From Gaiellaceae bacterium (GTDB lineage Bacteria; Actinomycetota; Thermoleophilia; Gaiellales; Gaiellaceae), in contig JBMDXR010000077.1 of the NCBI GenBank assembly GCA_048594925.1, positions 48,315 to 112,314 on the forward strand: a stretch of 64,000 nt of DNA. Reading direction: 5' to 3'. A program made the translations under genes and the position numbers. The notes under the pieces were generated by a model. That model was not told where the DNA came from, ran no database searches, and saw nothing but the letters and a program-made list of their open reading frames with translations. Below, piece by piece: positions 6,313 through 59,674 of this stretch. Position 1 is the stretch's first letter; every line of letters begins with the position of its first letter.

Positions 6313-6355
6313 GATCGTCCTCCCTCCGCTCGTGGCTCGGCCTCCAGCCTACGCC

Positions 6356-9116: not shown

Positions 9117-9127
9117 GGCCCGGAAAT

Positions 9128-14437: not shown

Positions 14438-14441
14438 GGGC

Positions 14442-16646: not shown

Positions 16647-16668
16647 GACGTCCCGTAGCCTACGGCGG

Positions 16669-19577: not shown

Positions 19578-19592
19578 GACTGAAGCCGAACC

Positions 19593-33647: not shown

Positions 33648-33703
33648 CGAAGTCGAGAGCCTACCGCGCGAGCCGACCGCCTCAGGAAGTTACGCTCGAG
33701 ACA

Positions 33704-39254: not shown

Positions 39255-41206
39255 ACTGTCGCGCCGACCGGATGGGCGATCCGCTCGGCGAGGGACAGCC
39301 CGTCCAGACCGTGGGCCCGAAGCGCCTCGGATGGCGTCCCGCAGGCCGGCCAGCCGTCGACGCCGAACACGATCACGTCACGTCCGCCGAGCTCACGCCT
39401 GATCGCGTCGCCGAGACCACCCACAGGGGAGTGATCCTCGAGCACGAAGACGTGCTCGTACTCGGCGAGCTCCAGCAGCCAGGTCCGGTCGAAGCGGTTC
39501 AGCCAGGGCATGTTCACGACCGCGAGCTCGGGCCCGCGCTCGGCCAGATGCTCCGCTGCCGTGAGCGCCTCGTGCAGCATCACGGGCCCGTACGCGACGA
39601 GGACGGCATCCCCTCCGTCGCGCAGCAAGCGCCCTCGGCCCGGCGCGATCTCACCCTGGAGGTCGATCCGCCGGGGCGACGGGCCGATCGCGAGCCGGAT
39701 CGCGCCGTTCCCGCTCGCGTCCTCGACCGCCCAGCGCACCAGTGCGCGGGTCTCCTCCGAGTTGCCGGGCTGCACGATCGTCGTGTCCGGAAGCGCACCG
39801 AGCAGCGAGATGTCGCGGACCGACTGGTGCGATTTTCCGGGCCCCGCCGGGATCAAGCCCGCGTAGTGGAGCGCGTACACGACCTTCGAGCCCTCGGTCG
39901 CCTGGTTGTAGATCTGCTCGTTCGCCCGCGACGCGAGGAACGAGGCGAACGAGTTGACGACCGGCAGCAGGCCGTGCCGTGCCACTCCCGCGGCGGTCGA
40001 GACCATGTCCTGCTCGGCGATGCCGCACTCGACGAACCGGTCGGGGAAGGCGAGGGCAAACCCGCGCACGCGACAGTCGGAGGCGAGATCGGCGTCGAGC
40101 ACGACGAGGTCGTCCCGCTCGGCGCCCAGGCGGACGAGCTCCTCACCGTACGCGTCGACGACGTACTCGTCGGTGACCTGTGCGCGGCGCGCCCCCGCGC
40201 CTGACTCGGGCTCGCCCCCCGGCGACCGGGTCGCTCGCTCCTCCGGCTCGATCGGCTCGATCGGCTCGAGCACGAGTGGGTCGAGGCCGTGCGCGGAGAG
40301 ACGCTCGCCGAGTCGTTCCGCAATCTCGGAGACCGCCTCCTCGAAGGACTCGTCGTCGGGGGCGCCCGCGTGCCACCGATACGTCCCGCCTCCGACTCGC
40401 AAGGCGACCGGATGCTCCATGAAGGAGACGCCCTTCCCCTTGATCGTGTTGGCGACGAGCACCTGCGGCCGGCCGCTCACCTCGCGGAACGCCGCGAACG
40501 TGGAGCGAAGCGCGCCGAAGTCGTGCCCGTCGCAGGATGTCACGTACCAGCCGAAGGCGCGGAATCGCTCCTCGAGCTCGCCGAGCGAGACGATCTCCTC
40601 TGTCGGCATGTCGGACTGGAGCTCGTTGCGGTCGACGACGACCGCGAGCCCCGTGAGCCCTTCATGCGCGGCAGCCTGCAGCCCCTCGTAGTTCTGCCCT
40701 TCCTGCAGCTCGCCGTCGCCGACCATCACGACGACGCGACCGCCGCGACCGAGATGCCGCTTCGCCCAGGCGATCCCGCGTCCCTTGGAGACGCCCATCC
40801 CGAGCGAGCCCGAGCTGGCCTCGATGCCCGGCACGCCGACGTCCGGGTGACCGTCGAGCCCTCCGAGCCGACGCAGACGGACGAAGCGCTCACGAGGGAT
40901 GACGCCGAGCGCGAACAACGCGGCGTAGAGCCCGGGGACGTCGTGCCCCTTGGAGGAGAAGTAGACGTCCCGATCCGGATCGTCCCATCCGAGCCTCGCA
41001 GTGTTCAGCTCCTCGAAGAGCAGGAAGGTCACGATGTCCATCGCGCTGAAGCTCGAACCGAGATGGCCGGAGCCCGCGCGCTTGACGGCGACGAGCGCGT
41101 TCAGGCGGCACATGTCTGCAAGCAACGCGAGACGTTCGTCCGGCTCCAGGGCGGCGTGGTGAACGCGATCGAGCTCTGCTCTCGGAACCAGGTGCAGATC
41201 GGGCAT
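39251..41206 (-). CDS. transketolase-family ThDP enzyme, N-terminal and C-terminal halves fused in one polypeptide
   Basis: Internal ATG 41206. The N-half carries GSGHLGSSFS and GDGELQEGQNYE. The linker is LEPIEPIEPEE. The C-half carries GIAEQDMVSTAAG and the transketolase C-terminal pattern. Confidence 0.85.
   Translation of the reverse strand: MPDLHLVPRAELDRVHHAALEPDERLALLADMCRLNALVAVKRAGSGHLGSSFSAMDIVTFLLFEELNTARLGWDDPDRDVYFSSKGHDVPGLYAALFALGVIPRERFVRLRRLGGLDGHPDVGVPGIEASSGSLGMGVSKGRGIAWAKRHLGRGGRVVVMVGDGELQEGQNYEGLQAAAHEGLTGLAVVVDRNELQSDMPTEEIVSLGELEERFRAFGWYVTSCDGHDFGALRSTFAAFREVSGRPQVLVANTIKGKGVSFMEHPVALRVGGGTYRWHAGAPDDESFEEAVSEIAERLGERLSAHGLDPLVLEPIEPIEPEERATRSPGGEPESGAGARRAQVTDEYVVDAYGEELVRLGAERDDLVVLDADLASDCRVRGFALAFPDRFVECGIAEQDMVSTAAGVARHGLLPVVNSFASFLASRANEQIYNQATEGSKVVYALHYAGLIPAGPGKSHQSVRDISLLGALPDTTIVQPGNSEETRALVRWAVEDASGNGAIRLAIGPSPRRIDLQGEIAPGRGRLLRDGGDAVLVAYGPVMLHEALTAAEHLAERGPELAVVNMPWLNRFDRTWLLELAEYEHVFVLEDHSPVGGLGDAIRRELGGRDVIVFGVDGWPACGTPSEALRAHGLDGLSLAERIAHPVGATV
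40244..40269. repeat. in-frame 9-bp tandem repeat (CGGCTCGAT, about 2.9 copies) encoding the EPI-EPI-EPE linker of the fused transketolase
   Basis: Read directly: cggctcgat cggctcgat cggctcga at 40244..40269. Confidence 0.7.
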
Positions 41207-41220
41207 GGGACCCCTCGACG

Positions 41221-42006
41221 CTACCGCGGTCTGTGCGGGGTCACGAGCTCCGAGAGATCGGCACCCTCGCGCAGCTCGTCGGTCTTCTCGCAGAGGAAGA
41301 GGGCCTCGCTCGAGCCGGGCCGGTACTCCGTGAAGCGGGTCACCTTGCGCCACCCCGTCCACGCGAGCTCGAGTCGCACGGCCTGAATCGTCGGCACGCC
41401 CTTCGCCTTGCCGTTCTCCGGCCAGCGAAGGCGCACGAGCGCGTCCGGGCGCGGGTCGATCGTCGTCTCGAACAGCATCGTCCCGCCCGGCTTCGTCACC
41501 CGGTTGAGCATCCCGAGGAGCGGCAGGTGATGGATCGAGTGGTAGAGGACGCCGAGGAAGAACACGAGGTCGAACGGATCGACGTCGAGCAGCTCCTTTG
41601 CCTCGCGCAGGTCGCCATAGACGAAGCGATGTGGTCGTTCGAGCCCGTCAACCCATTTCGCGTGCAGCTGAGTGTCCGATTCGAAGTCCGAGAAGACGAG
41701 TTCCGAGGGTTGGAGCTCGCGGTCGATCCAGCGCGCGTGGACTCCGTACTTCGGCCCGACCTCGAGCACGTGAGAGCCGCGGAAGCGCTCGCGGTCGACG
41801 ACTGCGCCGAGCGAATCAGGCAGCAGGGTCAGATCGGGGAGGTCCTCCGTGGCGGTCGTCGGTCGCTCGTCGCCGATCGGGCGCGGATCCTCGACGTACT
41901 CGGTCAGCTCGTCGAGCCGCGGGAGATTCTCGGGGTTGGGCTCGTACACCTGCAACCCGAGCCGCACTGCCGCCGACCACGCAGCCCGGCGCGCGAGGCT
42001 CTTCAC
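41221..42006 (-). CDS. putative class I methyltransferase-fold protein
   Basis: GTG 42006. Motifs: VLEVGPKYGVHA (degenerate motif I), FDLVFFLGVLYHS and TKPGGTMLFETT. Confidence 0.6.
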   Translation of the reverse strand: MKSLARRAAWSAAVRLGLQVYEPNPENLPRLDELTEYVEDPRPIGDERPTTATEDLPDLTLLPDSLGAVVDRERFRGSHVLEVGPKYGVHARWIDRELQPSELVFSDFESDTQLHAKWVDGLERPHRFVYGDLREAKELLDVDPFDLVFFLGVLYHSIHHLPLLGMLNRVTKPGGTMLFETTIDPRPDALVRLRWPENGKAKGVPTIQAVRLELAWTGWRKVTRFTEYRPGSSEALFLCEKTDELREGADLSELVTPHRPR

Positions 42007-42083: not shown

Positions 42084-44573
42084 GTGGCCGCCTCGGCTCC
42101 TCCTCGTCCTCGTCGCGCGAATCCCGGAACTTTCGCCGGGCTCTTCCTCGTCACGCTCTCGACCCTCATGTACGAGGTCGTCCTGACGCGGATCTTCAGC
42201 GTGACCATGTGGTACCACTTCGCGTTCGTCGCGATCTCGGTCGCGCTCTTCGGGCTCACGGCTGGCGCGCTCATCGTCCACCTCCAGCCCGGCCGCTTTC
42301 GGGACGGTGACGTGCCCGCGAGGCTCTGGCTCTTCTCGCTGCTCTTCAGCCTCGCGATCGCGATCTGCTTCGTGACGCAGCTCGCGATCCCCTTCGACCC
42401 CGAGCTGAACGTCGCAAGCGCCTGGTCGATCGTGCTCACGTGCCTGGTCATCTCGATCCCGTTCGTGTGCAGCGGAGTCGTCGTCTGCCTTGCGCTGACC
42501 CGCTTCCCGGCACAGACGAACCGGCTCTACGCAGCCGATCTGGTCGGTGCAGCTCTCGGCTGCATCCTCGTCGTGGCTCTGTTCGTCGTGCTGGACGGGC
42601 CAAGCCTCGTCATCGCGATCGGAGCGATCGCGGCGCTGGGCGCGCTCTTCTTCGCATTCGAGGCGGCCAGCCGACGCGGATTCGCCTTGGCACTGTCACT
42701 CGCAGTCGTGCTCGGCTCGGCCGCCGCCGTGAACGGCGTCCTCCACTCGAAGGGTCACCCGCTCCTGCGAATCGTCTGGGCCAAGGGTGAGCCCGACTTC
42801 CAGCACGACTTCGAGAAGTGGAATGCGTTCTCGCGCGTGACCGTCGACCGGTGGGGGGACGGCCTCACCGGCCCCTCCGGCGTCGGGATGAGCAGGACGA
42901 TCCCATCCGACACGCGCGTCGAGCAGCTCGGGATGGTGATCGACAGCAATGCGGCCACCGTCCTGACCCGCTACACCGGCGACCCGTCCGAGACGGACTT
43001 CCTGCGCTACGACATCTCGAACCTCGCACATCACGCCCTCGAGGCTGCGGACGTCCTCGTGATCGGCGTGGGGGGAGGCCGCGACGTGCTCTCGGCGCTC
43101 GAGTTCGACCAGAAGTCCGTCACCGGGGTCGAGATCAACGGGAACATCCTCGACACGACCAACGGCGAGTACGGCGCCTTCACCGGCCACCTCGACCGGA
43201 ACCCGCGCGTCAGGTTCGTCGAGGACGAGGCGCGCAGCTACCTCGCGCGCAGCGACGACACCTACGACCTCATCCAGATCTCGCTGATCGACACGTGGGC
43301 CGCGTCGTCCGCGGGCGCGTACGCGCTGACGGAGAACTCGCTGTACACGACCAGGGCTTGGGACGTCTTCCTCGACCGGCTCGCGCCGGGCGGGATGCTG
43401 TCCGTCTCGCGCTGGTACACGATCCCCGGACGCGAGCGGCCCCTCGAGGCCTACCGAGCCGTCGCGCTCGCTGCGACGGTGCTGATGGGGCGAGGAGCGG
43501 CCGATCCACGCGCGCACCTCCTCGTCTACCGCTCGGACCCGAACGGCGCCGGGGCGAGCGCGATGACGTTGCTCGTGAGCCCGGAGCCGTTCTCGGCCAC
43601 GACCCTCGCCGCGATCTCCGGCGCGGCGGCGCGGCTCGGTTTCACGCCGGTGCTCACGCCCGACGCCGCGATCGACGAGCACTTCGCGGCTCTCGCCTCG
43701 CCCAACGGGCCGGGGGAAGCTATCGCGTCGTTCGACGCCGACATCTCCGCGCCGACCGACGATCGGCCGTTCTTCTTCCAGATGGCCGACCTCGGAACCG
43801 TCTTCGGAGGCGCAGGCTTCTCGAGGGACGACTCGACCCGTCCGGTGCTCGTCCTGACCCTCCTCGCCGTCGCGATCCTCGGGATGACGCTGGGCTTCAT
43901 CGTCCTTCCGCTCCTCTTCAAGACCGGCGCCGCGGCGCATCGCGGTATGGCGCCCTTCTACTCGTACTTCGCCGGGATCGGGCTCGGGTTCCTCCTGATC
44001 GAGATCGCCCAGCTGCAGCGGCTGAGCATCTTCCTCGGGCACCCGACGTACGCGTTGACGGTCGTACTCTTCTCGCTCCTCGTGTCGAGCGGGATCGGGA
44101 GCATGGTCAGCGACCGCATCGCCGATCCACGCCGCCCCACGCGGGCCCTCGCGCCGCTCGGCGCCCTCGTCGTGACGGTGGCCGCGTTCGGGGTACTGAC
44201 TCCGGAGATCATCGAGCGGCTGGACGGGGCGACCACACCCGTACGCATCACGACGGCCGTCGCGATCCTTGTGCCGTGCGGCCTGCTCATGGGCACGGCG
44301 TTCCCCATCGGTATGCGGGCCGCAGCGGCGAGGCCCGGCGCCCCGACGGCATTTCTGTGGGGCATCAACGGCGCGACCTCGGTCTGCGCGTCGGTCTTCG
44401 GCGTCGCCATCGCGATCTTCTTCGGGATCTCGGTCTCGTACTTCGTCGGCGTTGGCGCGTACGCGTTCGCCGCAGTGGCGCTGGTCGTCATCGTCCGGTT
44501 GCAGCTGCGAGCGGCCGCGAGCGAGAGTCCCGACGAAGAGGACGCCCCGGCGCCCGTGCCCGCGGCGGCCTAG
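42084..44573 (+). CDS. fused polytopic-membrane / spermidine-synthase-like protein
   Basis: GTG 42084, 829 aa. The N-terminal helices begin LMYEVVLTRIFSVTMWYHFAFVAISVALFGLTAGA. A central Rossmann module follows (VLVIGVGGGRDVLSAL, LIQISLIDTW, LAPGGMLSVSRW). About 6 more helices lie at the C-terminus. Confidence 0.75.
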   Translation: MAASAPPRPRRANPGTFAGLFLVTLSTLMYEVVLTRIFSVTMWYHFAFVAISVALFGLTAGALIVHLQPGRFRDGDVPARLWLFSLLFSLAIAICFVTQLAIPFDPELNVASAWSIVLTCLVISIPFVCSGVVVCLALTRFPAQTNRLYAADLVGAALGCILVVALFVVLDGPSLVIAIGAIAALGALFFAFEAASRRGFALALSLAVVLGSAAAVNGVLHSKGHPLLRIVWAKGEPDFQHDFEKWNAFSRVTVDRWGDGLTGPSGVGMSRTIPSDTRVEQLGMVIDSNAATVLTRYTGDPSETDFLRYDISNLAHHALEAADVLVIGVGGGRDVLSALEFDQKSVTGVEINGNILDTTNGEYGAFTGHLDRNPRVRFVEDEARSYLARSDDTYDLIQISLIDTWAASSAGAYALTENSLYTTRAWDVFLDRLAPGGMLSVSRWYTIPGRERPLEAYRAVALAATVLMGRGAADPRAHLLVYRSDPNGAGASAMTLLVSPEPFSATTLAAISGAAARLGFTPVLTPDAAIDEHFAALASPNGPGEAIASFDADISAPTDDRPFFFQMADLGTVFGGAGFSRDDSTRPVLVLTLLAVAILGMTLGFIVLPLLFKTGAAAHRGMAPFYSYFAGIGLGFLLIEIAQLQRLSIFLGHPTYALTVVLFSLLVSSGIGSMVSDRIADPRRPTRALAPLGALVVTVAAFGVLTPEIIERLDGATTPVRITTAVAILVPCGLLMGTAFPIGMRAAAARPGAPTAFLWGINGATSVCASVFGVAIAIFFGISVSYFVGVGAYAFAAVALVVIVRLQLRAAASESPDEEDAPAPVPAAA

Positions 44574-45739
44574 GCCGTCGGCCAGGGGTGCTCGCGCAGG
44601 ACGTCCTCGTTCAGCTCGACGCCCCAACCCGGTCCAGCGGGGACGCGCAGCTCGCCTGCGGAGATCTGCGGTAGCGCGGTGACGAGCTCGTCGCGCCAGG
44701 GCACGTCGTCGACGTCGTACTCGAGAAAGCGCGCGTTCGGGATCGCCGCGCACCACTGGGCCCCGATGAACGTGGCCAGGTGGCTGTAGTAGTTGTGCGG
44801 AGCGCAGTTCACCTCGTAGGTCTCCGCGAGGTCGGCGATCTTCTTCGCCTGGTGGAAGCCGTTCCAGATCACGTCCACCGAGGCCACGTCCATGCCGGCC
44901 GCCTCGAAGAAGGGGCGGAAGTCGCGGCTCGAGTACAGGTTCTCGCCTGAGCAGATCGGCATCGGTGCGACGTGGCGAACGTGCGCGAGCGCACCGGCGT
45001 CGAAGAGGTCGACCTCGAGCCAGAGGAGATCGAACGGCTCGAGCGCCTTCGCGACGCGCACGCACCCCTCGGGCTCGAGGTTGAAGTTGAGGTCGACGAT
45101 CGGCCGTGCGGCGCCCCGCGCGCCTTCGGCGAACGCCTCGAGGAGCCGCACGAGCGCGTCGGTGATCTCCTCCGTCCGGAGCGTGCCGCCGCCCTCGTTG
45201 AACCCGGGCATGAGTACCCTCGGCTCGTCCCCCGGCACGACGACGTTGGTCTTGAACGCGCCGTAGCCCTGCTCGACCACCTCACGCCCGAGCGCGGCGA
45301 CGTCGTCGTACGAGGCGAGCTTAGGCGTACCAGTGACCTCGAACGCGCGCGCGCGCGTCGTGCCGCAGTGCGACCAGTACATCGGGATCGCCTCACGGGT
45401 CGGCCCGCCGAACAGCTCGTACACCGGCACCCCGAGAGCCTTCGCCTTGACGTCGAGCAGCGCGTTCTCGATGCCCGCGAGGGCCTTGGCGATGACCGAG
45501 CCCGGGCTCTGCCGGGTGGCCCGGTAGAGATCCCAGAAGATCGCCTCGACCGGTCGTGGGTCACGACCGACGACAAGCGGTGCGAGATCCTCCACGATGC
45601 CCGCGAGCCCACGGGGCGACCCGTGCGAGTCCGTGATCTCGGCCCAGCCGACGAGGCCGTCGTCGGTCGCGGCCTTCACGAAGATCCACGGCCGCCAGCC
45701 GGCGTCGCAGTAGAGCGTCTCGAGGGCGGCAAGCTTCAC
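44570..45739 (-). CDS. enolase-superfamily (mandelate racemase/muconate lactonizing enzyme family) putative acid-sugar dehydratase
   Basis: GTG 45739 lies in a GTGA overlap. Motifs are WIFVKAATDDGLVGWAEI and KAKALGVPVYELFGG, and the layout is a TIM barrel. The ORF-track N-terminus is a run-through. Confidence 0.85.
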   Translation of the reverse strand: MKLAALETLYCDAGWRPWIFVKAATDDGLVGWAEITDSHGSPRGLAGIVEDLAPLVVGRDPRPVEAIFWDLYRATRQSPGSVIAKALAGIENALLDVKAKALGVPVYELFGGPTREAIPMYWSHCGTTRARAFEVTGTPKLASYDDVAALGREVVEQGYGAFKTNVVVPGDEPRVLMPGFNEGGGTLRTEEITDALVRLLEAFAEGARGAARPIVDLNFNLEPEGCVRVAKALEPFDLLWLEVDLFDAGALAHVRHVAPMPICSGENLYSSRDFRPFFEAAGMDVASVDVIWNGFHQAKKIADLAETYEVNCAPHNYYSHLATFIGAQWCAAIPNARFLEYDVDDVPWRDELVTALPQISAGELRVPAGPGWGVELNEDVLREHPWPTA

Positions 45740-46491
45740 GAGGCGGGAGCATACGGCGGTCGTCCGACCTCCGGCAGCACCCCCTCGCCGCTCGCGACGA
45801 GACGCTCCGCCCGCGCCCAGTCCTCCTCGTCGTCGACGTTGAATCCCTCGAGGCCCTGCGTGAGGAAGGGCCCGACGACGTTCCCCTCGCGCGTTCCCGT
45901 CTCCGTGACGACGCGCATCCACGCGATCTCGAGCGCGCTGTTCTGGACGTAGACCGGCGGCAGCGCCTGGTACTGGCCAGCGTGCCAGGTGACCTGCAGG
46001 TGCGACTGGTCGAGGAGCGGGCGCATCGTCAGCCCGTCTGCCGAGAGCAGCCACATCTTCCCCGGGTGTTGCTTCACCAACTCGACCGCGCGGAGCGAAT
46101 CCGCCTCGGGCGTCGCAAGCAGCTGGTCGAAGCCTCGCCTGATCACGCCAGGACCACGGAAAGGGTTGGTGGCCCGGATGAGCGCGAACAGCTCGTACCG
46201 CTCCGGCAGATGCTCGACGGTGTATGCGAGCCACTCGATGTCCGGCGAGGTCGACGTCGCAAACTCGGCCGGCCGGAGAAACGGGACGTCCGCGCCGTAC
46301 CAGCGAGCGACCTCTGCGATCTCCTCGGAGTCGGTCGAGACGACCACGCGCTCGAAGCAGCCACTCTGTCGCGCTGCCTCGATGGCGTATGCCAGCAGCG
46401 GATGGCCTGCGAGCGGGCGCACGTTCTTGTGCGGAACCCGCTCCGACCCGGAGCGCGCCGGGACGAAGCCGACCGCAGAGGGCCCGGTCAC
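45736..46491 (-). CDS. acylneuraminate cytidylyltransferase-family (CTP_transf_3) CMP-sugar synthetase
   Basis: GTG 46491 lies in a GTGA overlap. Motifs are VPARSGSERVPHKNVRPLAGHPLLAYAI and VVVSTDSEEIAEVARWYGADVPFLRP. Confidence 0.85.
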   Translation of the reverse strand: MTGPSAVGFVPARSGSERVPHKNVRPLAGHPLLAYAIEAARQSGCFERVVVSTDSEEIAEVARWYGADVPFLRPAEFATSTSPDIEWLAYTVEHLPERYELFALIRATNPFRGPGVIRRGFDQLLATPEADSLRAVELVKQHPGKMWLLSADGLTMRPLLDQSHLQVTWHAGQYQALPPVYVQNSALEIAWMRVVTETGTREGNVVGPFLTQGLEGFNVDDEEDWARAERLVASGEGVLPEVGRPPYAPAS

Positions 46492-47378
46492 TGGAGCCCG
46501 GCGGCGACCGCGAGCTCGGTCAGCGCTGGGCAGGGAACTCCGGCCCGCTCCGCGACTCGCAGGACCCCGCCGACGATCGCGTCGAGCTCCGAGCGTCGCC
46601 CGGCAACGACGTCCCTCGCCGCCGACGTGGTCGTCTCGTCGGCCATCTGGTCGATGATCGCCCACTGCGCCGCAGGGCGCAGCGGAACGCCGTCGGCTTC
46701 CGCAACGGCGCAGGCCTCGGCGATCGCGCTGTCGAGCCGGGGGCGCCAGGTCCGGTCGTTGCGCAACTCGCCGACCGTCCGCCCGGAGGCAGACGTCGCC
46801 GCGGCGAGTGGGGCGATCCGCGCGAGCTTGTGCCAGAGCACCCGGCGCTCGTTCTGGCCGATGCGAACGTCGATCCTCGCACGTCGCAGGAGGTCGGCCG
46901 CGTGCTCGACCTCGGTGCGGGAGAGCGTCTCCGATGCGATCGTGATCACTGGAGCGGTCGTCGCCTCGACGATCTGGACGCGCCCGGCACGATAGGCCTG
47001 GAAGTGGGAGATGCTTCCGGCGGCCACGCGACCGTCGAAGCGTACCCTCAGGGCGTCCATGTGCTCGAGGCCGTTCAGGAGCGGGACGACGACACCGTCG
47101 GCCACCGCCTCCGGGGTCACGCGCTCCATCGCGTCCGCCAGCGCGGGCGCCTTCACCGTCACGAGGAGGAGGTCGACCGGTCTGGCGAGCCGCTCGGCGA
47201 CCTCAACCCGAGCCGTGAGCGTCCCCTCCTTCGACTCGACGACCAGCCCCGCGAGCGCGATGAGCCCGGCCGCCTCCGGGTGCGCGACGCAGACGACGCG
47301 CACGCCTGCGTTCGAGAGCCGGACGGCGAGCGTTCCGCCGACCGCGCCGGGGCCGAGGACTGCGACGGTGTCGTTCAT
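46488..47378 (-). CDS. ketopantoate reductase (ApbA/PanE)-family oxidoreductase
   Basis: ATG 47378 lies in an ATGA overlap. The VAVLGPGAVGGTLAVRL Rossmann motif is present and the 296-aa length is typical of the family. Confidence 0.75.
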   Translation of the reverse strand: MNDTVAVLGPGAVGGTLAVRLSNAGVRVVCVAHPEAAGLIALAGLVVESKEGTLTARVEVAERLARPVDLLLVTVKAPALADAMERVTPEAVADGVVVPLLNGLEHMDALRVRFDGRVAAGSISHFQAYRAGRVQIVEATTAPVITIASETLSRTEVEHAADLLRRARIDVRIGQNERRVLWHKLARIAPLAAATSASGRTVGELRNDRTWRPRLDSAIAEACAVAEADGVPLRPAAQWAIIDQMADETTTSAARDVVAGRRSELDAIVGGVLRVAERAGVPCPALTELAVAAGLQ

Positions 47379-48802
47379 GTCTTCGTGGGATCGACGACGA
47401 GGTTGACGACCTTCTGATCGGAGTACACGTCGAGGGACTCGATCCCTGCCTCCCTCCAGCCGGTTCCCGAGTCCTTGACACCGCCGAAGCCCATGTGCGG
47501 CTCGGAGCCGTGCGTGCCGGCGTTCACGACCACGACACCAGCGTGCACTCGCTCGGCGAAGTGCATGGCCCGATGCACGCTCCCGGTGTGAATCGCGGCC
47601 GTGAGACCGTACGGCGAGTCGTTCACGAGCGCGATCGCATCGTCGAGGCCCGCGGTGCGATAGAGCACCGTCACGGGCCCGAACAGCTCGCTGCGTGAGA
47701 TCTCGTCCTCGGCTGGAGTTCCCTCGAGGACGGTCGGCGCCACGTGCCAGCCGGGACGCTCGAGCCGCTCACCTCCGGTGAGCACCGTCGCTCCACGCGC
47801 CCTTGCGTCAGCGACGGCGGCGAGGATCCGCTCCATGCTCTCGCGGCTGATGACCGGCTGCGATTCGACCTCGCCTGCCGCCTCGACGAGGCGCGCGCGG
47901 AAGTCGTCGTAGACCGCGTCCGCTGCGACGATCCTGCTTGCGGACGCGCATCGCTGCCCCGCGTTGGAGAAGGCGGACGCGAGCGCCCAGTGCACGGCAC
48001 GATCGAGGTCCGCGTCGTCACATACGACCAGCGCGTTCTTGCCGCCGAGCTCGAGGCAGGTCTTCGCGAGTCGCCGAGCCGCCACCTCGTTGATCGCGCG
48101 TCCGGTCGCGGCCGAGCCCGTGAAGCTGACGAGATCGACGTCGGCATGCCCGACGAGCGCTGCTCCCGCCTCGCCCCCCAGCCCGTGAACGACGTTGAGC
48201 ACTCCCGCGGGAACGCCCGCCGCGAGCGCGAGCTCGGCAAAGAACGACGCTGAGACGGGCACGTGCTCGGACGGCTTCACCACCGCCGCGTTCCCGCAGA
48301 AGATCGCCGGGAACGCCTTCCAGGCGATGTTGGGAAGCGGCGTGTTGAAGCTCATGATCAGGGCCGCGACGCCAAGTGGCTGACGCAGCGTGAGGACCGT
48401 CCGGTGCGCCATGCTCGCCGTCGTCGTCCGCCCGTATGAGCGCCGGCCCTCGCCAGCGATGAACAGGCCCATCTCGACGGCCGCGTCGGTCTCGCCGAGA
48501 GCGAGCTCCAGCGACTTGCCCGTCTCCTCGACCACGATCGCCGATGCCTCCTCTCGTCGCTCGCGCAGGAGCAGCGCAAGGTCACGGACGACGTCGCCCC
48601 GCGAGACCGCGGTCCGCTCGGCCCACTCGGGCTGCGCCGACCGTGCAGCTGCGACCGCCCCAGCGACATCTTCCGCTCCCGAGCGGGCGATCATGCACAG
48701 GAGCGTCTCGTCGGCTGGCCGAAGCTTCTCGAGCCACGCCCCGGAGTGCGGCGGAGCCGCCGTGCCGCCTATGAGGTTGGGAACCTCCTCGGGTGTCACC
48801 AC
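47375..48802 (-). CDS. NAD(P)-dependent aldehyde dehydrogenase
   Basis: The start is GTG 48802 or 48799. Motifs: FTGSAATGRAI, ELGGKNALVV (catalytic Glu) and NAGQRCASASR (catalytic Cys). Confidence 0.9.
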   Translation of the reverse strand: MVTPEEVPNLIGGTAAPPHSGAWLEKLRPADETLLCMIARSGAEDVAGAVAAARSAQPEWAERTAVSRGDVVRDLALLLRERREEASAIVVEETGKSLELALGETDAAVEMGLFIAGEGRRSYGRTTTASMAHRTVLTLRQPLGVAALIMSFNTPLPNIAWKAFPAIFCGNAAVVKPSEHVPVSASFFAELALAAGVPAGVLNVVHGLGGEAGAALVGHADVDLVSFTGSAATGRAINEVAARRLAKTCLELGGKNALVVCDDADLDRAVHWALASAFSNAGQRCASASRIVAADAVYDDFRARLVEAAGEVESQPVISRESMERILAAVADARARGATVLTGGERLERPGWHVAPTVLEGTPAEDEISRSELFGPVTVLYRTAGLDDAIALVNDSPYGLTAAIHTGSVHRAMHFAERVHAGVVVVNAGTHGSEPHMGFGGVKDSGTGWREAGIESLDVYSDQKVVNLVVDPTKT

Positions 48803-49581
48803 GCGGACCAGCCGCCGTCGACGACGACGTTCGAGCCCGTGACGTACGACGAGGCGTCGGAGGCGAGGAAGACGACGGCGCCGAGCGCCTCGCGCGCGTC
48901 CAGCATTCGCCCCATCGGCGCCCGCGCCGCATACGCGTCGAGAAACTCCTGCGCCTGGTCGTTCCAGACGCCCGAGAGCGTGAGCGTGTTCACGCGAACT
49001 CCGGCTTTCGCCCAGTACGTCGCCAGATAGCGCGTGAGGTTGAGGACGGCAGACTTCGAGACCGAGTACGCGACGGGCTTCACGAAGGTCTCGCCACGCT
49101 CGCGACGGAACGCGTAGAGATCCTGTACCGGGGACAGCAGGCCGTAGACGGACGAGATGTTCACGATCGAGCCACGGCCTGCCTTCGCCATCGCCCCGCC
49201 CACCGCCTGGCAGCAGAGGAACGTCCCCTTCACGTTGACGTCCATCACCTCGTCGAAGGACGCCTCGGGATACTCCTCGAACGGACCGACCTCCTCCGCG
49301 GGCGCATCAGGGGGTGAGTCGAGGCCGGCGTTGTTGATCAGCACGTGCGGAACGCCCCACTCCTGCACGACCTCCTCGAGTGCCCGCGCGACCGCGGTGC
49401 GGTCGGTGACGTCGACCTCGTAGGCACGGACGCCGTCGGGAAGGTCGCCCGACGCGACGTCGAAGCTCGCGACGCGCATGCCGCGCTCTGCGAGTCCGCC
49501 CGCGTACACCTGTCCCAGCTGGCCCATGGCGCCCGTGACGATCGCCACGCGACCGCTCAGATCGAACAGCGGATCGCTCAC
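48796..49581 (-). CDS. short-chain dehydrogenase/reductase (classical SDR)
   Basis: GTG 49581 lies in a GTGA overlap. Motifs: VAIVTGAMGQLG, NNAG and YSVSKSAV (YxxxK). Confidence 0.9.
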   Translation of the reverse strand: MSDPLFDLSGRVAIVTGAMGQLGQVYAGGLAERGMRVASFDVASGDLPDGVRAYEVDVTDRTAVARALEEVVQEWGVPHVLINNAGLDSPPDAPAEEVGPFEEYPEASFDEVMDVNVKGTFLCCQAVGGAMAKAGRGSIVNISSVYGLLSPVQDLYAFRRERGETFVKPVAYSVSKSAVLNLTRYLATYWAKAGVRVNTLTLSGVWNDQAQEFLDAYAARAPMGRMLDAREALGAVVFLASDASSYVTGSNVVVDGGWSAW

Positions 49582-50660
49582 GCTTCGCGAGCAGCGACCG
49601 CCTGTCCCGCGGGCACCAGGTCGTCGAGAGCGACGGCCTGCTCCGCGGCCAGCGGCCGTGCGAGCGTGCGCCCGAGCAAGCCGTCGAGCTCGTAGGGCGG
49701 CAGGCCGCCGTCCGCGGGTGACTTCGCGACCAGGTCCCCCGGAGCGAGGACGTGCCCGGCCCGAAGTTCTCGAGCCGCGACGAGCTGCTTGCCCATCTTC
49801 TGCAGCGGCCGCTCCTCGCTCGGCAGGCGGCGCTTGACGCCGTCACCGAGCGCTGCGGGCACGCGCTGGAGATCGCGGACGAAGCGTCGCATGCCGTCCG
49901 GCATCAGCGAGTAGGCGTGGTCCGTGCCCCTCCATGCGTGATTGAGCGTGAAGTGCTTCTCGAACACGCGCGCGCCGAGCATGAAAGCCACCGGCGCCAT
50001 CGCGATCCCGTTGTGGTGGTCGGAGAGACCGATGACGAGATCGGGATAGCGCTCTCGCAGCGTCGCGATGACCGAGAGGTTCAGATCCTCGACCTCGGCC
50101 GGGTACGAGGCGGTGCAGTGGAGGACCGCCAGCTGGGGGTTCGTCGATGCGGTCGCCTCAACGGCGCGGTCGATGTCCTCGATCGTCCCGCCGCCCGTGG
50201 AGAGGAACATGGGCTTGCCGAGCGCGGCGACGTACCGAAGAAACGGCACGTTCACGAGGTCACCGGACGCGAACTTGAACGCGTCGACGCCGAGCTCGGC
50301 GAGGAAGTCGGCGCTCGGCTCGTCGAAGGCCGCCGCGACGAAGGCGACGCCTTCCTCCCGCGCGTACTGGCTGAGCTCGAACCAGTCGGCCTTGGGCAGC
50401 TCGAGCGCCTCGCGATGCTCGCCGTACGTGGCGCCGAAGCTGTTCTCGTTGTCGTACGGCGAGTCGTAGAACGCGCGCGTGAAGAGCACGCGGTTGTCGC
50501 GCTTCTGGAACTTGACCGCGTCCACACCGCAGTCCCGCGCGGCGTGGATGAGCGCCTTCGCCTTCTCGACGTCGCCCTGATGGTTGTGCCCTATCTCCGC
50601 GATGACGTACGCCGCGCCGTCCCGCGTGATGGTCCTGCCGTCGACGACGAGCTCTGGCAC
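49578..50660 (-). CDS. NeuB-family 3-deoxy-2-ulosonic (sialic/Kdn-type) acid synthase with C-terminal SAF domain
   Basis: GTG 50660. Motifs: VIAEIGHNHQGD, AVKFQKR, SFGATYGEHREALEL, LHCTASYP and GLSDHHNG. The SAF-like tail is GKQLVAARELRAGHVLAPGDL. Confidence 0.9.
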   Translation of the reverse strand: MPELVVDGRTITRDGAAYVIAEIGHNHQGDVEKAKALIHAARDCGVDAVKFQKRDNRVLFTRAFYDSPYDNENSFGATYGEHREALELPKADWFELSQYAREEGVAFVAAAFDEPSADFLAELGVDAFKFASGDLVNVPFLRYVAALGKPMFLSTGGGTIEDIDRAVEATASTNPQLAVLHCTASYPAEVEDLNLSVIATLRERYPDLVIGLSDHHNGIAMAPVAFMLGARVFEKHFTLNHAWRGTDHAYSLMPDGMRRFVRDLQRVPAALGDGVKRRLPSEERPLQKMGKQLVAARELRAGHVLAPGDLVAKSPADGGLPPYELDGLLGRTLARPLAAEQAVALDDLVPAGQAVAAREA

Positions 50661-50672: not shown

Positions 50673-52325
50673 CTAGCGAAGCCGGAACACGATCACGTCA
50701 CCGACCTGCTCGCGCTCCAGCGCGAGACCCCTGGTTGGCTTGACATCGGCACGCTCCCAGCTCGTGCCGGCCGCGAACTCCGGGTGCAAGAGAACCGTTC
50801 TGACGCCGACGTCGCGCAGCGCCCGCACGGACTGCTCGTCCGGGAATCCGGTGATGCTCCTGCGCAGGGCGTCGTAGCCCGAGGGATCGAAGCCCCCGAA
50901 GCCGTTCACGGTCGCGGGGAAGCCGTCCGTCGACCAGTAGCTGTACAGGGAGTCGTTCGTGGGAGGCAGGTGGAGCTGCGGTGCCGCCTCGAGGCGGACG
51001 GCCCCCGGTGGCTCGGGGACTCGGGGATGGGTGAGCGGGCCGAGCCCCTCTACGAGAACGACGACGACGCCGAGCACTCCCGCCGCCGCCGCGAGGCTCG
51101 CCGACCGCGCGCGAAGCGCGCGCACGACCACGCAGAGCCCTGCACCCGCGAGAAGCGCGAGACCGAGGGACGTGAGCGTGTTGATGCGACCCGGCGTTCG
51201 GACACCGTCCCAGCCGGGAGCGAAGTCGAAGAGCAGGCGGTACGGAGTCAGGTACCGCTCGAGTCCGTCGACGTCGCGAACTCCGAGGGACAAGAGCGCG
51301 CACACGACCACCCCGAGCGCGAGGCCGATCCGCAGGCGACGTGAGAACACGGATCCGAAGACGCCGACGAGAGCGAGAACGGAGATCGCGAGACCGGGGA
51401 AGAGCGACATCTCGACCGGCGCGGCGAGGGGAGCGCGGGCTCGGTGGGTGGCATCGCCCCAGATCCAACTCTCCTCCGGCGCGGCGAGGAAGCTCCGCGG
51501 CAGCCGCGGCGAGAACGACTCGACGTACGCAGGCGTCCGCTCGGCCTCCGGATGCTCGTCCAGCACCCGGAGGTACGGCCGCACCATCAACGCCGAGACC
51601 ACGACGAAGATCCCCACGCCGAGCGACGTCGCGACCAGGACGGGTCGATCCGGTCGCGCGAGCGACCGACGCCAGATGGCAAGGAGCGCGACGACGGCGA
51701 GTACGAGCAGGAGGTACGCGAGCAGCAGGCCGAGCGTGAAGCCGAGCGTCATCTGCCAGGCGGCGACGAGCCACCCGCAGACGACCGTGACCGGGCTCCG
51801 CCGTCGGTACCCGCGGACGAGCAGGAACAGCGCGAGCGGGATGCCTCCGCTGGAGAGGACGTGCAGGTGGCCGTTCTGCGTGAGCTTCCACGGCGCGTAG
51901 GCGAACGCCGCGCCGGCCGCAGCGGCGCCGATCCAGCCGACTCCGAGCTCCCGTGCCAGGAGGTAGGCGCCGACGAACGCCAGCCCGTATGCGAGCAGGA
52001 ACAGGACGTTGTAGGTGACGAGAGCGGCGTGGGGGCTCGCCTGCGCGAACAGCGCGGCCGGCGTGTACCCGACGAGCGCATCCGAGAATGCGAGCGTGTC
52101 CTCGTACGGCCAGAACGTGTTCGCCTGCCAGAGGTCGAGCGGCCCCTCGAGCAGCGCGTGCCCGATCCACGCCACCTGCCAGGCCTGCAGGAGGGGATCG
52201 CCGAGGTCCTTCCCGATGTCGCTCCCGAGATGGAGAACGAGCGGCCAGCTCATCAGCATCGCGAGCCCGAGCCCGGCGAGCGCCGTCACAGCCGCCTCCA
52301 GCCACGAGAGCTCGCGATCCACCAC
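50673..52325 (-). CDS. large polytopic membrane protein with C-terminal extracytoplasmic domain (GT-C-like, family unresolved)
   Basis: The start is GTG 52325 or 52322, with a 1-nt overlap with the upstream stop. The motif GDPLLQAWQVAWIGHAL lies in the first loop. There are about 11 helices and a roughly 130-aa C-terminal soluble domain. The 925-aa ORF-track product is a run-through. Confidence 0.6.
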   Translation of the reverse strand: MVDRELSWLEAAVTALAGLGLAMLMSWPLVLHLGSDIGKDLGDPLLQAWQVAWIGHALLEGPLDLWQANTFWPYEDTLAFSDALVGYTPAALFAQASPHAALVTYNVLFLLAYGLAFVGAYLLARELGVGWIGAAAAGAAFAYAPWKLTQNGHLHVLSSGGIPLALFLLVRGYRRRSPVTVVCGWLVAAWQMTLGFTLGLLLAYLLLVLAVVALLAIWRRSLARPDRPVLVATSLGVGIFVVVSALMVRPYLRVLDEHPEAERTPAYVESFSPRLPRSFLAAPEESWIWGDATHRARAPLAAPVEMSLFPGLAISVLALVGVFGSVFSRRLRIGLALGVVVCALLSLGVRDVDGLERYLTPYRLLFDFAPGWDGVRTPGRINTLTSLGLALLAGAGLCVVVRALRARSASLAAAAGVLGVVVVLVEGLGPLTHPRVPEPPGAVRLEAAPQLHLPPTNDSLYSYWSTDGFPATVNGFGGFDPSGYDALRRSITGFPDEQSVRALRDVGVRTVLLHPEFAAGTSWERADVKPTRGLALEREQVGDVIVFRLR

Positions 52326-53293
52326 TATGCGCGCTCGCCTGCGACGACGCGCCGCCGGAGCTGACGCGCGCCCCGCACGCCCAGCGCGACCCCGCCGACG
52401 AGGGTCGTCGGCACGTACCACGCCGCGTGCAGCAGGATCGTGAACGCCAGCGCGGGCTCGTGGCCGATGTCGAGCAGGCCGAGTGATGCCACCCCGAGCC
52501 ACTCGTAGGTCCCGACGTAGCCCGGCGACGAGGGGACCGCCGATCCGAGATTGAGGACCGCGGTCACGAACAGCGCCTCGGCGAACGAGAGCTCGATGCC
52601 GAGCGACCGGGCGACGAGAAACGCCGCCAGCGCCCACATCTCCCAGGCGCCGAGGCTCAGAACGAGCCAGACGACGAGATGCCGTCGCCCGAGCGGCTCG
52701 GCCAGGCGCTCGACCGTGTCGCGCACGAGCCGGCGGAGCAGTCCGCGCTCCCGGCGATGCCGCTCGCGCCGATCGATGTACGCCCGCGCGAACAGCAGGA
52801 CACCGACGACGCCGAGCAGCACCACCACGCCGGCCGCCGCCAGCTCCACGAGCCAGCCGGAGCTCGCGACGGCGGCGATGCCCACGATGAGCAGGGCGAC
52901 GAGCACGATGAGGTCGAAGGCGCGGTCGAGGATCACCGTCCCGAACGCCTTGCCGGCCGGCATGCGTGCCGCGAGCCCGAGCCAACGTGCGCGCAGGAAG
53001 TCGCCGATGCGGCCGGGGAGCACGTTGTTCACGGCGACCCCGCTCACCGTCATCTCGCAGAAGCGAGCCAGCTGCACGCCTGGGGTCGCCGCGATCCTGC
53101 GCCAGCGCACCGACTGGAAGACGTAGACGACGCCGAACGCGAGGATCGCGAGGGCCACCAGGCCGGGATCGGCGTCGCGAAGCGTGTCCCAGACCGCGTC
53201 GAGATCTGCGTTGCGAACTGCGAGCCAGAGGAAGACGAGCCCGATCGGGACTCCGAGCAGCGCAACGAGGGTGCGGAGACGCCCCGACGACAT
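52325..53293 (-). CDS. PF03706 (LPG-synthase-TM / UPF0104) flippase-like membrane protein
   Basis: ATG 53293. It has 8 hydrophobic helices and the motifs VLPGRIGDFLRARW and VPSSPGYVGTYEW, which are typical of this family. Confidence 0.75.
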   Translation of the reverse strand: MSSGRLRTLVALLGVPIGLVFLWLAVRNADLDAVWDTLRDADPGLVALAILAFGVVYVFQSVRWRRIAATPGVQLARFCEMTVSGVAVNNVLPGRIGDFLRARWLGLAARMPAGKAFGTVILDRAFDLIVLVALLIVGIAAVASSGWLVELAAAGVVVLLGVVGVLLFARAYIDRRERHRRERGLLRRLVRDTVERLAEPLGRRHLVVWLVLSLGAWEMWALAAFLVARSLGIELSFAEALFVTAVLNLGSAVPSSPGYVGTYEWLGVASLGLLDIGHEPALAFTILLHAAWYVPTTLVGGVALGVRGARQLRRRVVAGERA

Positions 53294-59242: not shown

Positions 59243-59650
59243 CTAGGTTGGCTTCGCGTCGAGCACGTCGATCGTCGCCGTCGGCACGATCCCCTCGACG
59301 CCGCGCGCGAGCTTCTCGTCCAGGGTCACGAACGCCTCTCCCTGCAGCTGCGTGAGCGCGAGGTACTCGGCGTCGTAGGTCTCGGCCCAGCCCAGGCGAT
59401 CCGCCAGCTCCCAGGCGCGACGTCGCAGCACGGCGTCGCCGAGGAGCCTGATCCGCATCCGGTTGACGCGGGCGAGAAGCTCGCGCGCGACGTCAGCGGG
59501 GATCTCTGCCCGGTGGACGGCTTCGTGCATCGCCGACAGCGTCTGGGACCGCAGAAGCGTCGGTGCCAGGAGCTCGTGCTCCTCCGAGGCCTCTGTCCCC
59601 GTGCTCGCGAGGTGGAGCACGACGCCCGCGTCGACGACGAACCTGGTCAC
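59243..59650 (-). CDS. PIN-domain protein (VapC-like), no cognate antitoxin gene visible
   Basis: GTG 59650, 135 aa. The acidic PIN residues are in their usual contexts: FVVDAGVVL, MHEAV, YDAEYLALT and FVTLDEKL. Confidence 0.7.
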   Translation of the reverse strand: MTRFVVDAGVVLHLASTGTEASEEHELLAPTLLRSQTLSAMHEAVHRAEIPADVARELLARVNRMRIRLLGDAVLRRRAWELADRLGWAETYDAEYLALTQLQGEAFVTLDEKLARGVEGIVPTATIDVLDAKPT

Positions 59651-59674
59651 GGCAGCAAAGGGTAGACGGGTGGC

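Follow-up and report, generated by a model that had tools for sequence, protein, structure and literature searches.

Kdo, Kdn and the sialic, legionaminic and pseudaminic acids belong to the ulosonic acids, a group of key sugars of cell surfaces whose pathways are thought to be well catalogued. Here we describe a gene cluster of a Gaiellaceae bacterium in which a NeuB-family synthase and a cytidylyltransferase are encoded together with redox enzymes, an enolase-superfamily protein and, further downstream, a transketolase. The analysis covered a stretch of 64,000 nucleotides of contig JBMDXR010000077.1 with a G+C content of about 70%, which is referred to as the window throughout; all positions are those of the window. 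Six intact minus-strand open reading frames between positions 44570 and 50660 encode proteins of 360, 261, 475, 296, 251 and 389 amino acids. When the junctions were re-derived from the reverse strand, each stop codon overlapped the next start codon, by 4, 7, 4, 4 and 4 nt along the chain (junction sequences, from neuB to the enolase-superfamily gene, GTGA, GTGGTGA, ATGA, GTGA and GTGA), at exactly the positions listed in an earlier reading of the same DNA made from its letters alone (hereafter the sequence-only reading), and these junctions support the translationally coupled operon proposed there. The six family assignments made at that time also agree with our Pfam searches, which returned NeuB plus SAF, adh_short, Aldedh, ApbA plus ApbA_C, CTP_transf_3, and MR_MLE_N plus MR_MLE_C. 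Catalytic and cofactor motifs are unbroken in all six proteins. No promoter-like sites were seen around the operon and terminator-like sites occurred only at the level expected by chance, both scans being uninformative at 70% G+C. Stronger evidence than the overlaps is the recurrence of the gene order, which is found in about 40 Gaiellales loci and, for the core of the cluster, in at least six other phyla.

None of the six proteins reaches the curated cut-off of a function-specific (equivalog) NCBIfam model, and no named enzyme can be regarded as the orthologue of any of them; the only NCBIfam model passed by any of the six is the broad ApbA/PanE subfamily model. The first gene, neuB (49578..50660, minus strand), encodes a 360-residue synthase of the NeuB family, that is, an enzyme type condensing phosphoenolpyruvate (PEP) with an aldose or aldose phosphate. 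It matches PF03102 over the full profile with 250.8 bits, carries a C-terminal SAF domain (PF08666, 31.9 bits) and contains the metal-binding histidine motifs SDH and EKH. Its scores for the equivalogs NeuB (TIGR03569, 287.4 against a cut-off of 399.65) and PseI (TIGR03586, 209.6 against 340.25) are too low for assignment to either, and its best match in the PDB is SpsE (1vli), followed by NmNeuB. The string KFQKR...SFGATYGEHREALEL, which the sequence-only reading had associated with animal-type or Kdn-9-phosphate synthases, is indeed present. A gapless alignment with human NANS (Neu5Ac-9-phosphate synthase) gave 39% identity, which is to be taken as a lead only; the best solved bacterial NeuB/SpsE structures score lower. 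A resemblance of the synthase to 9-phosphate synthases is thus supported mostly by the linkage to a phosphatase gene that is described below.

The second gene, sdr (48796..49581, minus strand), encodes a classical short-chain dehydrogenase/reductase (SDR) of 261 amino acids (Pfam adh_short). Its best NCBIfam models, all below cut-off, are gluconate 5-dehydrogenase (a subfamily-type model, 158 against 279), mannonate oxidoreductase and KduD, all of which stand for oxidations of sugar acids at the penultimate carbon; the PDB matches KduD (4z9y) and Ga5DH (1vl8) reach scores that are only about equal to that of FabG. It is followed by aldh (47375..48802, minus strand) for an NAD(P)-dependent aldehyde dehydrogenase (ALDH) of 475 amino acids with ELGGK and GQRC motifs (Pfam Aldedh, 457 bits). 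Here the best NCBIfam models are 2,5-dioxovalerate and alpha-ketoglutarate-semialdehyde dehydrogenase, again below cut-off (346 against 750 for 2,5-dioxovalerate), and the best PDB match is succinate-semialdehyde dehydrogenase from E. coli (3jz4); the protein also resembles the lactaldehyde/glycolaldehyde dehydrogenase AldA. The fourth gene, kpr (46488..47378, minus strand), specifies a 2-oxo-acid reductase of the ketopantoate reductase family (KPR-like; 296 amino acids, Pfam ApbA and ApbA_C), which exceeds the cut-off of subfamily model TIGR00745 (176.6 against 141.35) and fails all equivalogs (e.g., 131 against 382); its genetic context argues against a role in pantothenate synthesis.

The fifth gene, cyt (45736..46491, minus strand), encodes a cytidylyltransferase of the CMP-ulosonate synthetase type (251 amino acids; CTP_transf_3, PF02348, 79.1 bits) with the PARSGS...KN motif. 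It stays below the PseF equivalog (TIGR03584, 128.8 against 205.7), reaches at most 47 bits with KdsB models, and finds its best PDB matches in NeuA (9ftb) and CMP-Neu5Ac synthetase (1eyr), both well above KdsB; judged by these matches the protein is NeuA/PseF-like and not KdsB-like. The last gene, enol (44570..45739, minus strand), encodes a member of the enolase superfamily that resembles acid-sugar dehydratases (389 amino acids; PF13378, 143.5 bits; PF02746, 64.2 bits) and has the three carboxylate magnesium-ligand motifs (DLN/EVD/GEN). Scores for galactonate and mannonate dehydratase models are low (NF010624 for galactonate, 154.5 against 311; NF043051, 122.5 against 550), and a full-length match was obtained with a Burkholderia xenovorans protein without assigned function (2oo6, E = 1e-100). 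This structural-genomics protein was deposited as 'putative L-Ala-DL-Glu epimerase', and the PDB entries concerned are 2oo6, 3go2, 3sn0, 3sn1 and 3sn4; some of these entries presumably contain bound dicarboxylates, which would fit a dicarboxylic substrate.

The transketolase gene tkt (39251..41206, minus strand) lies outside the six-gene operon. Its product of 651 amino acids contains the Pfam domains Transketolase_N, pyr and C, has human TKT as its best PDB match (E = 4e-62), also matches the split transketolase of Carboxydothermus, and fails all transketolase equivalog cut-offs of NCBIfam (389.7 against 488). The protein was aligned to human TKT, and its active-site residues are given in human numbering following the published residue list (PMC8016368). 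Residues H37, H110, K244, H258 and E366 are kept in the window protein and in 68 of 68 full-length cluster-type relatives, all of which also have a histidine in place of Gln428. A histidine at this position is typical of bacterial and yeast transketolases. In the 20 aligned sequences of the window protein and 19 full-length homologues, H77 and the magnesium ligands D155 and N185 are conserved as well, so that the motif for thiamine diphosphate (ThDP) and magnesium, the cofactor-activating glutamate and the histidines contacting the C1 hydroxyl of the donor are all in place. The residues that bind the phosphate group of the substrate, on the other hand, are replaced in 68 of 68 sequences (R318 by V/I/A/S/T/L/M, S345 by D, H416 by Y/L/F and R474 by I/S/N/P), and the aspartate that reads the C2 hydroxyl of the acceptor, D424, is a proline in 67 and a threonine in the remaining one. 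The window protein has V318, D345, Y416, P424 and I474 and thus no sugar-phosphate site. Taken together, the kept catalytic residues and the lost phosphate-site residues argue for a true ketol-transferring ThDP enzyme whose substrates would not be sugar phosphates.

Human Arg318, Ser345, His416, Arg474 and Asp424 correspond to E. coli Arg358, Ser385, His461, Arg520 and Asp469; the equivalence of R318/H416/R474 with R358/H461/R520 rests on local motifs, the full-length MAFFT alignment being off by one or two columns at some sites. An E. coli transketolase with the exchanges R358I/H461S/R520Q has been engineered for better cleavage of 5-keto-D-gluconate to tartaric semialdehyde (PMC12016104), and these engineered positions are those that are naturally replaced in the cluster transketolases. 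A decarboxylase or DXS-type action (DXS, DXP synthase) on C1-C2 of an ulosonate was rejected, as the histidines for the C1 hydroxyl of the donor are kept and matches to DXS are far weaker.

We then linked these proteins with the genetic environment of their relatives. A scan with the synthase, restricted to one genome per species, yielded 80 loci to which the window proteins were mapped by tblastn, and an alignment of 11 cluster transketolases was scanned against metagenome contigs; in total, 160 related loci were available. The nearest neuB-anchored loci (81-86% identity) stem from metagenome-assembled genomes of Gaiellaceae and other Gaiellales from soil, and among the matches listed, searches with NeuB, the transketolase and the GT-B-fold protein encoded next to it gave only close relatives (at least 69% identity) with generic names. 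The order neuB-sdr-aldh-kpr-cyt-enol is found in about 40 Gaiellales loci, usually with wzy and gt4 upstream of neuB and, where downstream genes were detected, with genes for a methyltransferase, the transketolase and the GT-B protein (mt-tkt-GT-B) directly after enol. Among the 59 neuB-anchored loci with at least 6.5 kb of downstream sequence, sdr is present in all 59, cyt in 56 and aldh in 53, always co-directional with neuB. Outside the Gaiellales the arrangement is neuB-(had)-sdr-aldh-cyt-tkt, often with 4-nt overlaps, in Gemmatimonadota, Chloroflexota, Desulfobacterota/Thermodesulfobacteriota, Alphaproteobacteria (Kaistiaceae, Bauldia), Acidiferrobacteraceae and other Actinomycetota, and these clusters from the neuB scan are devoid of the genes for the KPR-like and enolase-superfamily proteins. 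The reciprocal view is the same: neuB, sdr, aldh and cyt occur in this order in 19-20 of the 27 transketolase-anchored loci with at least 6 kb upstream, and in 34 of 66 transketolase-anchored loci cyt ends no more than 400 nt from tkt and lies directly upstream of it. Because of this reciprocal linkage and the lost phosphate site, a housekeeping transketolase was rejected.

The conserved core thus consists of NeuB, a KdsC-type phosphatase, SDR, ALDH, cytidylyltransferase and transketolase, and in other phyla the transketolase is the most constant companion of neuB, sdr and cyt. The sequence-only reading had taken the six overlapping genes as the functional unit and had treated the KPR-like and enolase-superfamily enzymes as central to it. 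Neither view holds: the core differs from the six genes and includes a transketolase that was not counted among them, and kpr and enol form an accessory pair that is absent from most versions outside the Gaiellales. They are not a Gaiellales accident either, as the two genes recur side by side in two distant variants (L128 and L131), the latter reading neuB-had-sdr-aldh-enol-kpr-cyt-tkt with a neuB only 43% identical to that of the window.

Variant L128 (positions 232-15367) is located on metagenome contig Ga0265297_10000310 with 39.5% G+C and holds all families in one co-directional cluster, namely sdr and genes for a TylF-type methyltransferase, a GT-B protein, the enolase-superfamily protein, the KPR-like protein, cyt, aldh, a KdsC-like HAD protein, tkt, a gene without family assignment, a KpsC/S-like Capsule_synth protein, a methyltransferase, a second CTP_transf_3 protein and neuB; two cytidylyltransferase genes are therefore present within this single cluster. 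In a Kaistiaceae metagenome-assembled genome (L061:16068-20473), tkt is directly followed by a gene for a 570-residue protein weakly resembling KpsC/KpsS-type Capsule_synth proteins, for which no PDB sequence match was found, and then by rmlC, rmlB and rmlD, which suggests that rhamnose and the sugar derived from the ulosonate are constituents of one capsule. A 260-residue HAD hydrolase is encoded upstream in the same locus (7824-8606).

In many relatives, some 480 nt between neuB and sdr encode a HAD phosphatase of the KdsC/YrbI type with about 165 amino acids and the motifs FDFDGVFTDN...GNDxND. The gene follows neuB directly in 42 of the 80 neuB-anchored loci and is present in many transketolase-anchored loci as well. 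In NCBIfam it comes closest to KdsC and to the KDN-9-phosphate phosphatase of the B. thetaiotaomicron type, with scores below the cut-offs for what was a partial query. The sequence-only reading had noted that the HAD phosphatase needed for the Kdn route is missing; this is correct for the window, in which tblastn returned nothing better than E > 1, but not for the relatives. The phosphatase in the relatives points to a decorated Kdn-type route and not something unrelated. The route via Kdn-9-phosphate synthase, Kdn-9-phosphate phosphatase and CMP-Kdn synthetase is established (PMC6200933), and the phosphatase linkage, together with the NANS lead, indicates that the synthase of the cluster may likewise make a terminally phosphorylated ulosonate.

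It is very likely that all these genes serve one pathway leading to a modified CMP-ulosonate. From the observed gene content, linkage, family membership and active-site signatures we infer the following substrates, step order and product. The synthase would condense PEP with a hexose 6-phosphate, most simply mannose 6-phosphate, to a nonulosonate 9-phosphate (Kdn-9-phosphate), and the KdsC-type phosphatase would free the C9 hydroxyl. Oxidation of the penultimate C8 hydroxyl by the SDR would then create a HOCH2-CO-CHOH- terminus, that is, a ketose-like donor for transketolase; by our own stereochemical reasoning the tail of 8-keto-Kdn would be D-threo and D-fructose-like (3S,4R), as transketolases require. 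The transketolase would remove C8 and C9 as a ThDP-bound glycolaldehyde unit and leave a C7 aldehyde, which the ALDH would oxidize to the carboxylate, yielding a 3-deoxy-hept-2-ulosaric acid, i.e., a dicarboxylic acid of the class of Dha (3-deoxy-D-lyxo-hept-2-ulosaric acid). Where the accessory pair is present, the enolase-superfamily dehydratase would act at the C7 end and the KPR-like enzyme would reduce the resulting 6-oxo group, with 5-deoxygenation or epimerisation as the net effect. The C7 end is the expected site because a dehydratase of this kind needs an alpha-hydroxy carboxylate and C1 is already part of a 2-keto-3-deoxy structure; an alpha-hydroxy-acid dehydratase combined with a 2-oxo-acid reductase would be meaningful only if the carboxylate acted upon is not C1. 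Finally, the cytidylyltransferase would form the CMP donor, and the adjacent GT-B, GT4 and Wzy-type proteins would install the sugar in a cell-envelope glycopolymer. Installation in a surface polymer is suggested because, in L061 and L128, tkt is followed by genes for KpsC/KpsS-like Capsule_synth proteins and the genes for GT-B, GT4 and Wzy proteins occupy equivalent places in the window.

A precedent for the trimming steps is the proposed route to L-tartrate, in which gluconate 5-dehydrogenase forms 5-keto-gluconate, transketolase cleaves it between C4 and C5 to tartaric semialdehyde, and a semialdehyde dehydrogenase converts the latter to tartrate (PMC12016104). The companions of the synthase, SDR, transketolase and ALDH, are compatible with the same logic acting on a sugar acid, and the subfamily matches of SDR and ALDH are compatible with it without being diagnostic. 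The most far-reaching form of this scheme is one in which a dedicated transketolase lacking the phosphate site trims a nonulosonate, or builds a C4 aldehyde-acid, and together with SDR and ALDH gives rise to a CMP-activated heptulosaric (Dha-class) envelope sugar in at least seven phyla, and we assign this scheme a probability of about 0.42. An ulosaric (dicarboxylic) acid, one of the options offered by the sequence-only reading, would be the best guess for the product; that it is of the heptulosaric class, by either order of steps, we hold at slightly less than an even chance, and the mechanism in precisely the step order given above is a little more tentative still.

Several observations weigh against this scheme. 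Every substrate in it has been deduced. The former phosphate pocket of the transketolase is now lined by aspartate, proline and hydrophobic residues instead of cationic ones, and binding of a carboxylated sugar is not an obvious consequence. The matches of SDR and ALDH to the 'right' subfamilies are below cut-offs and barely above those to unrelated members. In the window, a convergent inserted gene cuts tkt off from the six genes, and the KdsC-type phosphatase is missing from all 64 kb. The ALDH is truly absent from six of the related loci (L014, L055, L056, L058, L116 and L123), where sdr is directly followed by kpr or cyt, and three of these (L014, L055 and L056) still carry enol and kpr; an aldehyde oxidation that every cluster needs is hard to reconcile with this, as is an enolase-superfamily enzyme acting on a carboxylate made by ALDH. 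The L-arabino configuration expected for a product derived from Kdn (again our own reasoning) would make it a diastereomer of plant Dha, which is D-lyxo. Lastly, transketolases with the same signature are encoded without neuB, cyt or sdr nearby in three loci (L093:2920-4956, L094:7992-9971 and L104:1621-3657); the neighbors in L094 are genes for VWA proteins, a peptide release factor and AtuA. It may be that the phosphate-site-less subfamily serves another purpose as well, or that its partners are encoded elsewhere in these three genomes.

The first alternative keeps the product class and shifts the carbon-carbon cleavage to a point before the condensation. With SDR and transketolase acting first, a hexonate would pass through its 5-keto form and end up as a four-carbon aldehyde-acid, a tetruronate of the kind of tartaric semialdehyde. 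The synthase would condense this compound with PEP to 3-deoxy-heptulosaric acid, which would then be activated with CMP. Transketolase cleavage of 5-keto-gluconate to tartaric semialdehyde is documented (PMC12016104), and both the loss of the phosphate site and the clusters without ALDH are readily accommodated. We nevertheless consider this order of events unlikely: no role would be left for the ALDH encoded in 53 of 59 loci or for the phosphatase encoded in 42 of 80, the ALDH would destroy the very aldehyde that the synthase needs, precursor would be lost to the enolase/KPR pair if this pair acted on a hexonate, and the synthase resembles enzymes of the 9-phosphate type, although this resemblance is a lead only.

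To the same degree we doubt that the product is an ordinary C9 nonulosonate resembling Kdn, the side chain of which would be redox-tailored or epimerised by the SDR, with or without the KPR-like enzyme, while transketolase and ALDH would handle a C2 unit (glycolyl/glycolate, or detoxification of glycolaldehyde). Pairs of SDR redox reactions do bring about side-chain epimerisation in other nonulosonate pathways, the AldA-like traits of the ALDH and its dispensability in some clusters would be explained, and the methyltransferases of the cluster show that substituents get added. However, known C2-donating transketolase systems use phosphorylated ketoses, and the phosphate site is lost in all 68 sequences; neither an acyl carrier nor a ligase or acyltransferase was seen among the conserved core genes, and the tight pairing of cyt and tkt across phyla argues for a transketolase acting on the sugar itself.

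A distinctly improbable variant is chain extension, in which the transketolase would add a C2 ketol unit to an ulosonate aldehyde and thereby form a keto-ulosonic acid with more carbons (e.g., C11). Transketolase is reversible, and ketol transfer extends sugars in some natural-product pathways, but the aldehyde would require an oxidase for the primary alcohol whereas classical SDRs mostly act on secondary alcohols, and formation of a ketone is a better fit to an SDR resembling gluconate 5-dehydrogenase and KduD; in addition, the ALDH would be a competitor for this aldehyde and no gene supplying a donor is present. Least probable of all, and very unlikely in view of the interleaved gene order and its conservation across phyla, are two unrelated modules, one for a CMP-nonulosonate (neuB, cyt) and a separate one for the catabolism of sugar acids (sdr, aldh, kpr, enol), an alternative that the sequence-only reading had named as a refutation of its proposal. 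By their family matches, an SDR, an enolase-superfamily dehydratase and an ALDH of the alpha-ketoglutarate-semialdehyde type do make up a Weimberg/Dahms-type set. However, genes of the two supposed modules alternate along the operon (neuB-sdr-aldh-kpr-cyt-enol) and are coupled in translation, and at least six other phyla without enol or kpr keep sdr and aldh in their place between neuB and cyt. A transporter, a regulator or an aldolase, as expected of a catabolic operon, is missing, and the surroundings consist of glycosyltransferase genes.

These surroundings form an envelope-polysaccharide locus of about 60 kb with glycosyltransferase (GT) and Wzy genes, including at least 12 genes of families GT2 and GT4 and several for methyltransferases. 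The tight co-directional chain extends upstream beyond neuB. It includes genes for a Wzy_C membrane protein resembling O-antigen ligases/polymerases (54400..55776, minus strand; PF04932), which overlaps the following GT4 gene by 4 nt, for the GT4 glycosyltransferase itself (53396..54403, minus strand; Glycos_transf_1/Glyco_transf_4), for an LPG_synthase_TM-family membrane protein (52325..53293, minus strand; PF03706, 171 bits) and for a polytopic membrane protein of 550 amino acids without a Pfam hit (50673..52325, minus strand), which ends 12 nt before neuB. The start of the latter at 52325, where it overlaps the preceding stop codon, was placed by the profile of G+C at third codon positions, and some Gaiellales loci likewise carry this gene upstream of neuB.

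Downstream, the gene that separates enol from mt-tkt encodes an 829-residue polytopic membrane protein with a central methyltransferase-fold domain resembling spermidine synthase (42084..44573, plus strand; weak NCBIfam match to polyamine aminopropyltransferase). The gene runs towards the operon, with an overlap at the operon's last stop codon. As homologues were found in none of the 80 related loci, and as enol there stands directly before mt-tkt, it represents an insertion specific to the Gaiellaceae genome of the window. The order enol-mt-tkt is otherwise conserved in Gaiellales loci; mt (41221..42006, minus strand; Methyltransf_23/11/12), located 14 nt upstream of tkt, encodes an S-adenosylmethionine-dependent methyltransferase that could possibly O-methylate the sugar or the polymer. 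On its other side, tkt shares a TGATG overlap with the gene for a 'TagF-like' GT-B-fold protein of 454 amino acids (37887..39251, minus strand; weak Glyphos_transf match, PF04464, 34 bits). An AlphaFold2 model of this protein (predicted local distance difference test score 85) retrieved UDP-GlcNAc 2-epimerases (E about 6e-10 to 1e-9) and TagF/TarL (E about 2e-8) in Foldseek, all with TM values of 0.5-0.57. Relatives are labelled CDP-glycerol glycerophosphotransferase, and some close homologues show a faint Epimerase_2 match in Pfam. The modelled fold resembles 2-epimerases and TagF about equally; the protein would be a transferase or polymerase for the product, which is the likelier role, or else an enzyme resembling nucleotide-sugar epimerases.

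Among the window proteins scanned there was no DegT-type or other pyridoxal phosphate (PLP)-dependent aminotransferase, no hydrolysing 2-epimerase and no N-acetyltransferase, and to this extent we agree with the sequence-only reading, which had recognised none of the canonical partners of nonulosonate cassettes in the 64 kb; the dehydratase family, however, is represented by three NAD-dependent epimerase/dehydratase genes 25-45 kb from the operon, one of them for the GDP-mannose 4,6-dehydratase Gmd (18576-19592) and the others at 1577-2533 and 3538-4683. Further genes of the window specify a second Wzy_C protein (119-1558), a PylC-like ATP-grasp protein (9128-10186), a fused GT2-GT4 protein (14442-16763), an ABC ATPase (27092-29242), a PIG-L deacetylase (32202-32888) and an FkbM methyltransferase (33560-34522). 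At the high-coordinate edge of the locus (59243-63998, minus strand) lie a PIN-domain gene, a gene for a protein resembling amine oxidase/protoporphyrinogen oxidase (60952-62379) and one for ferrochelatase with a long N-terminal extension (62340-63998, minus strand); these haem-synthesis genes are unrelated to the locus.

The closest known system is the CMP-Kdn pathway, described for B. thetaiotaomicron (synthase BT1714, phosphatase BT1713) and Prymnesium parvum (PMC6200933). It shares with the cluster a NeuB-family synthase, here probably also of the type for phosphorylated substrates, a KdsC-family phosphatase that is encoded adjacently (in the relatives) and a CTP_transf_3 enzyme, and it needs no epimerase, aminotransferase or acetyltransferase. 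In contrast, the cluster adds a fixed set of SDR, ALDH and transketolase with or without the KPR-like and enolase-superfamily proteins, i.e., three to five extra enzymes, the window copy has no phosphatase, and its proteins stay below the NeuB, PseI and PseF cut-offs. Canonical cassettes for Neu5Ac (NeuBCA), legionaminic and pseudaminic acid likewise combine PEP condensation by a NeuB-family enzyme and CMP activation and serve surface glycans; the cluster differs from them in having no hydrolysing 2-epimerase, PseB/LegB-type dehydratase, PLP-dependent aminotransferase or N-acetyltransferase.

With the L-tartrate route (PMC12016104) the proposed scheme would have in common the oxidation of a penultimate carbon, the ThDP-dependent removal of a C2 ketol unit and the conversion of the aldehyde to a second carboxylate. 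That route, however, is catabolic or biotechnological, starts from an aldonic acid with six carbons and relies on a transketolase that is either a housekeeping enzyme or an engineered one, whereas the trio described here is genetically tied to a CMP-ulosonate pathway and its transketolase belongs to a dedicated natural subfamily. Compared with canonical transketolases (human TKT, 4kxu; E. coli TktA; the split enzyme of Carboxydothermus), this subfamily has the same three-domain fold, the GDG...N motif for ThDP and magnesium, the catalytic histidine set and the activating glutamate, but lacks the phosphate-binding residues and the aspartate for the C2 hydroxyl of the acceptor and is encoded in polysaccharide loci and not with pentose-phosphate genes. 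Acid-sugar dehydratases of the enolase superfamily and alpha-ketoglutarate-semialdehyde dehydrogenase from oxidative pentose and hexarate catabolism belong to the same families as the enzymes found here, and abstraction of an alpha-proton with elimination of a beta-hydroxyl group beside a carboxylate would be common to both settings; in the present, biosynthetic context the enolase-superfamily protein is paired with an enzyme of the ketopantoate reductase family and not with an aldolase or decarboxylating dehydratase.

The predicted product would fall into the same C7 class of 3-deoxy-2-ulosaric dicarboxylic acids, related to Kdo and sialic acids, as the Dha of plant rhamnogalacturonan-II (RG-II) and of prasinophytes, from which it would differ in being L-arabino instead of D-lyxo and in being a predicted sugar of bacteria. 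Which genes are responsible for making Dha, and in what form it is activated, is still unknown (PMC12168206). In the literature searched, we found no description of a NeuB/cytidylyltransferase cluster with a transketolase or of a bacterial pathway to an ulosaric acid, and all matches to 'ulosaric' concern plant RG-II or algae. The system may be viewed as a Kdn pathway extended by a trimming module similar to the tartrate route, and such a tailoring module would be unprecedented for CMP-ulosonate clusters.

The cassette spans Actinomycetota to Proteobacteria and is found mostly in uncultured bacteria from soil and sediment. If the chain-shortening scheme is true, bacteria would possess an activated acidic sugar of a class not defined before, and its formation would show for the first time how enzymes can arrive at a heptulosaric acid. 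No earlier route to an ulosaric acid would have been defined genetically, and ketol cleavage would for the first time serve to tailor a glycan. The scheme would also provide a natural transketolase subfamily that is pre-adapted to non-phosphorylated sugar acids and of relevance to biocatalysis, for example for tartaric semialdehyde (PMC12016104). For the Gaiellales, an abundant but barely cultured soil lineage, the cassette is a testable marker for the chemistry of the cell envelope.

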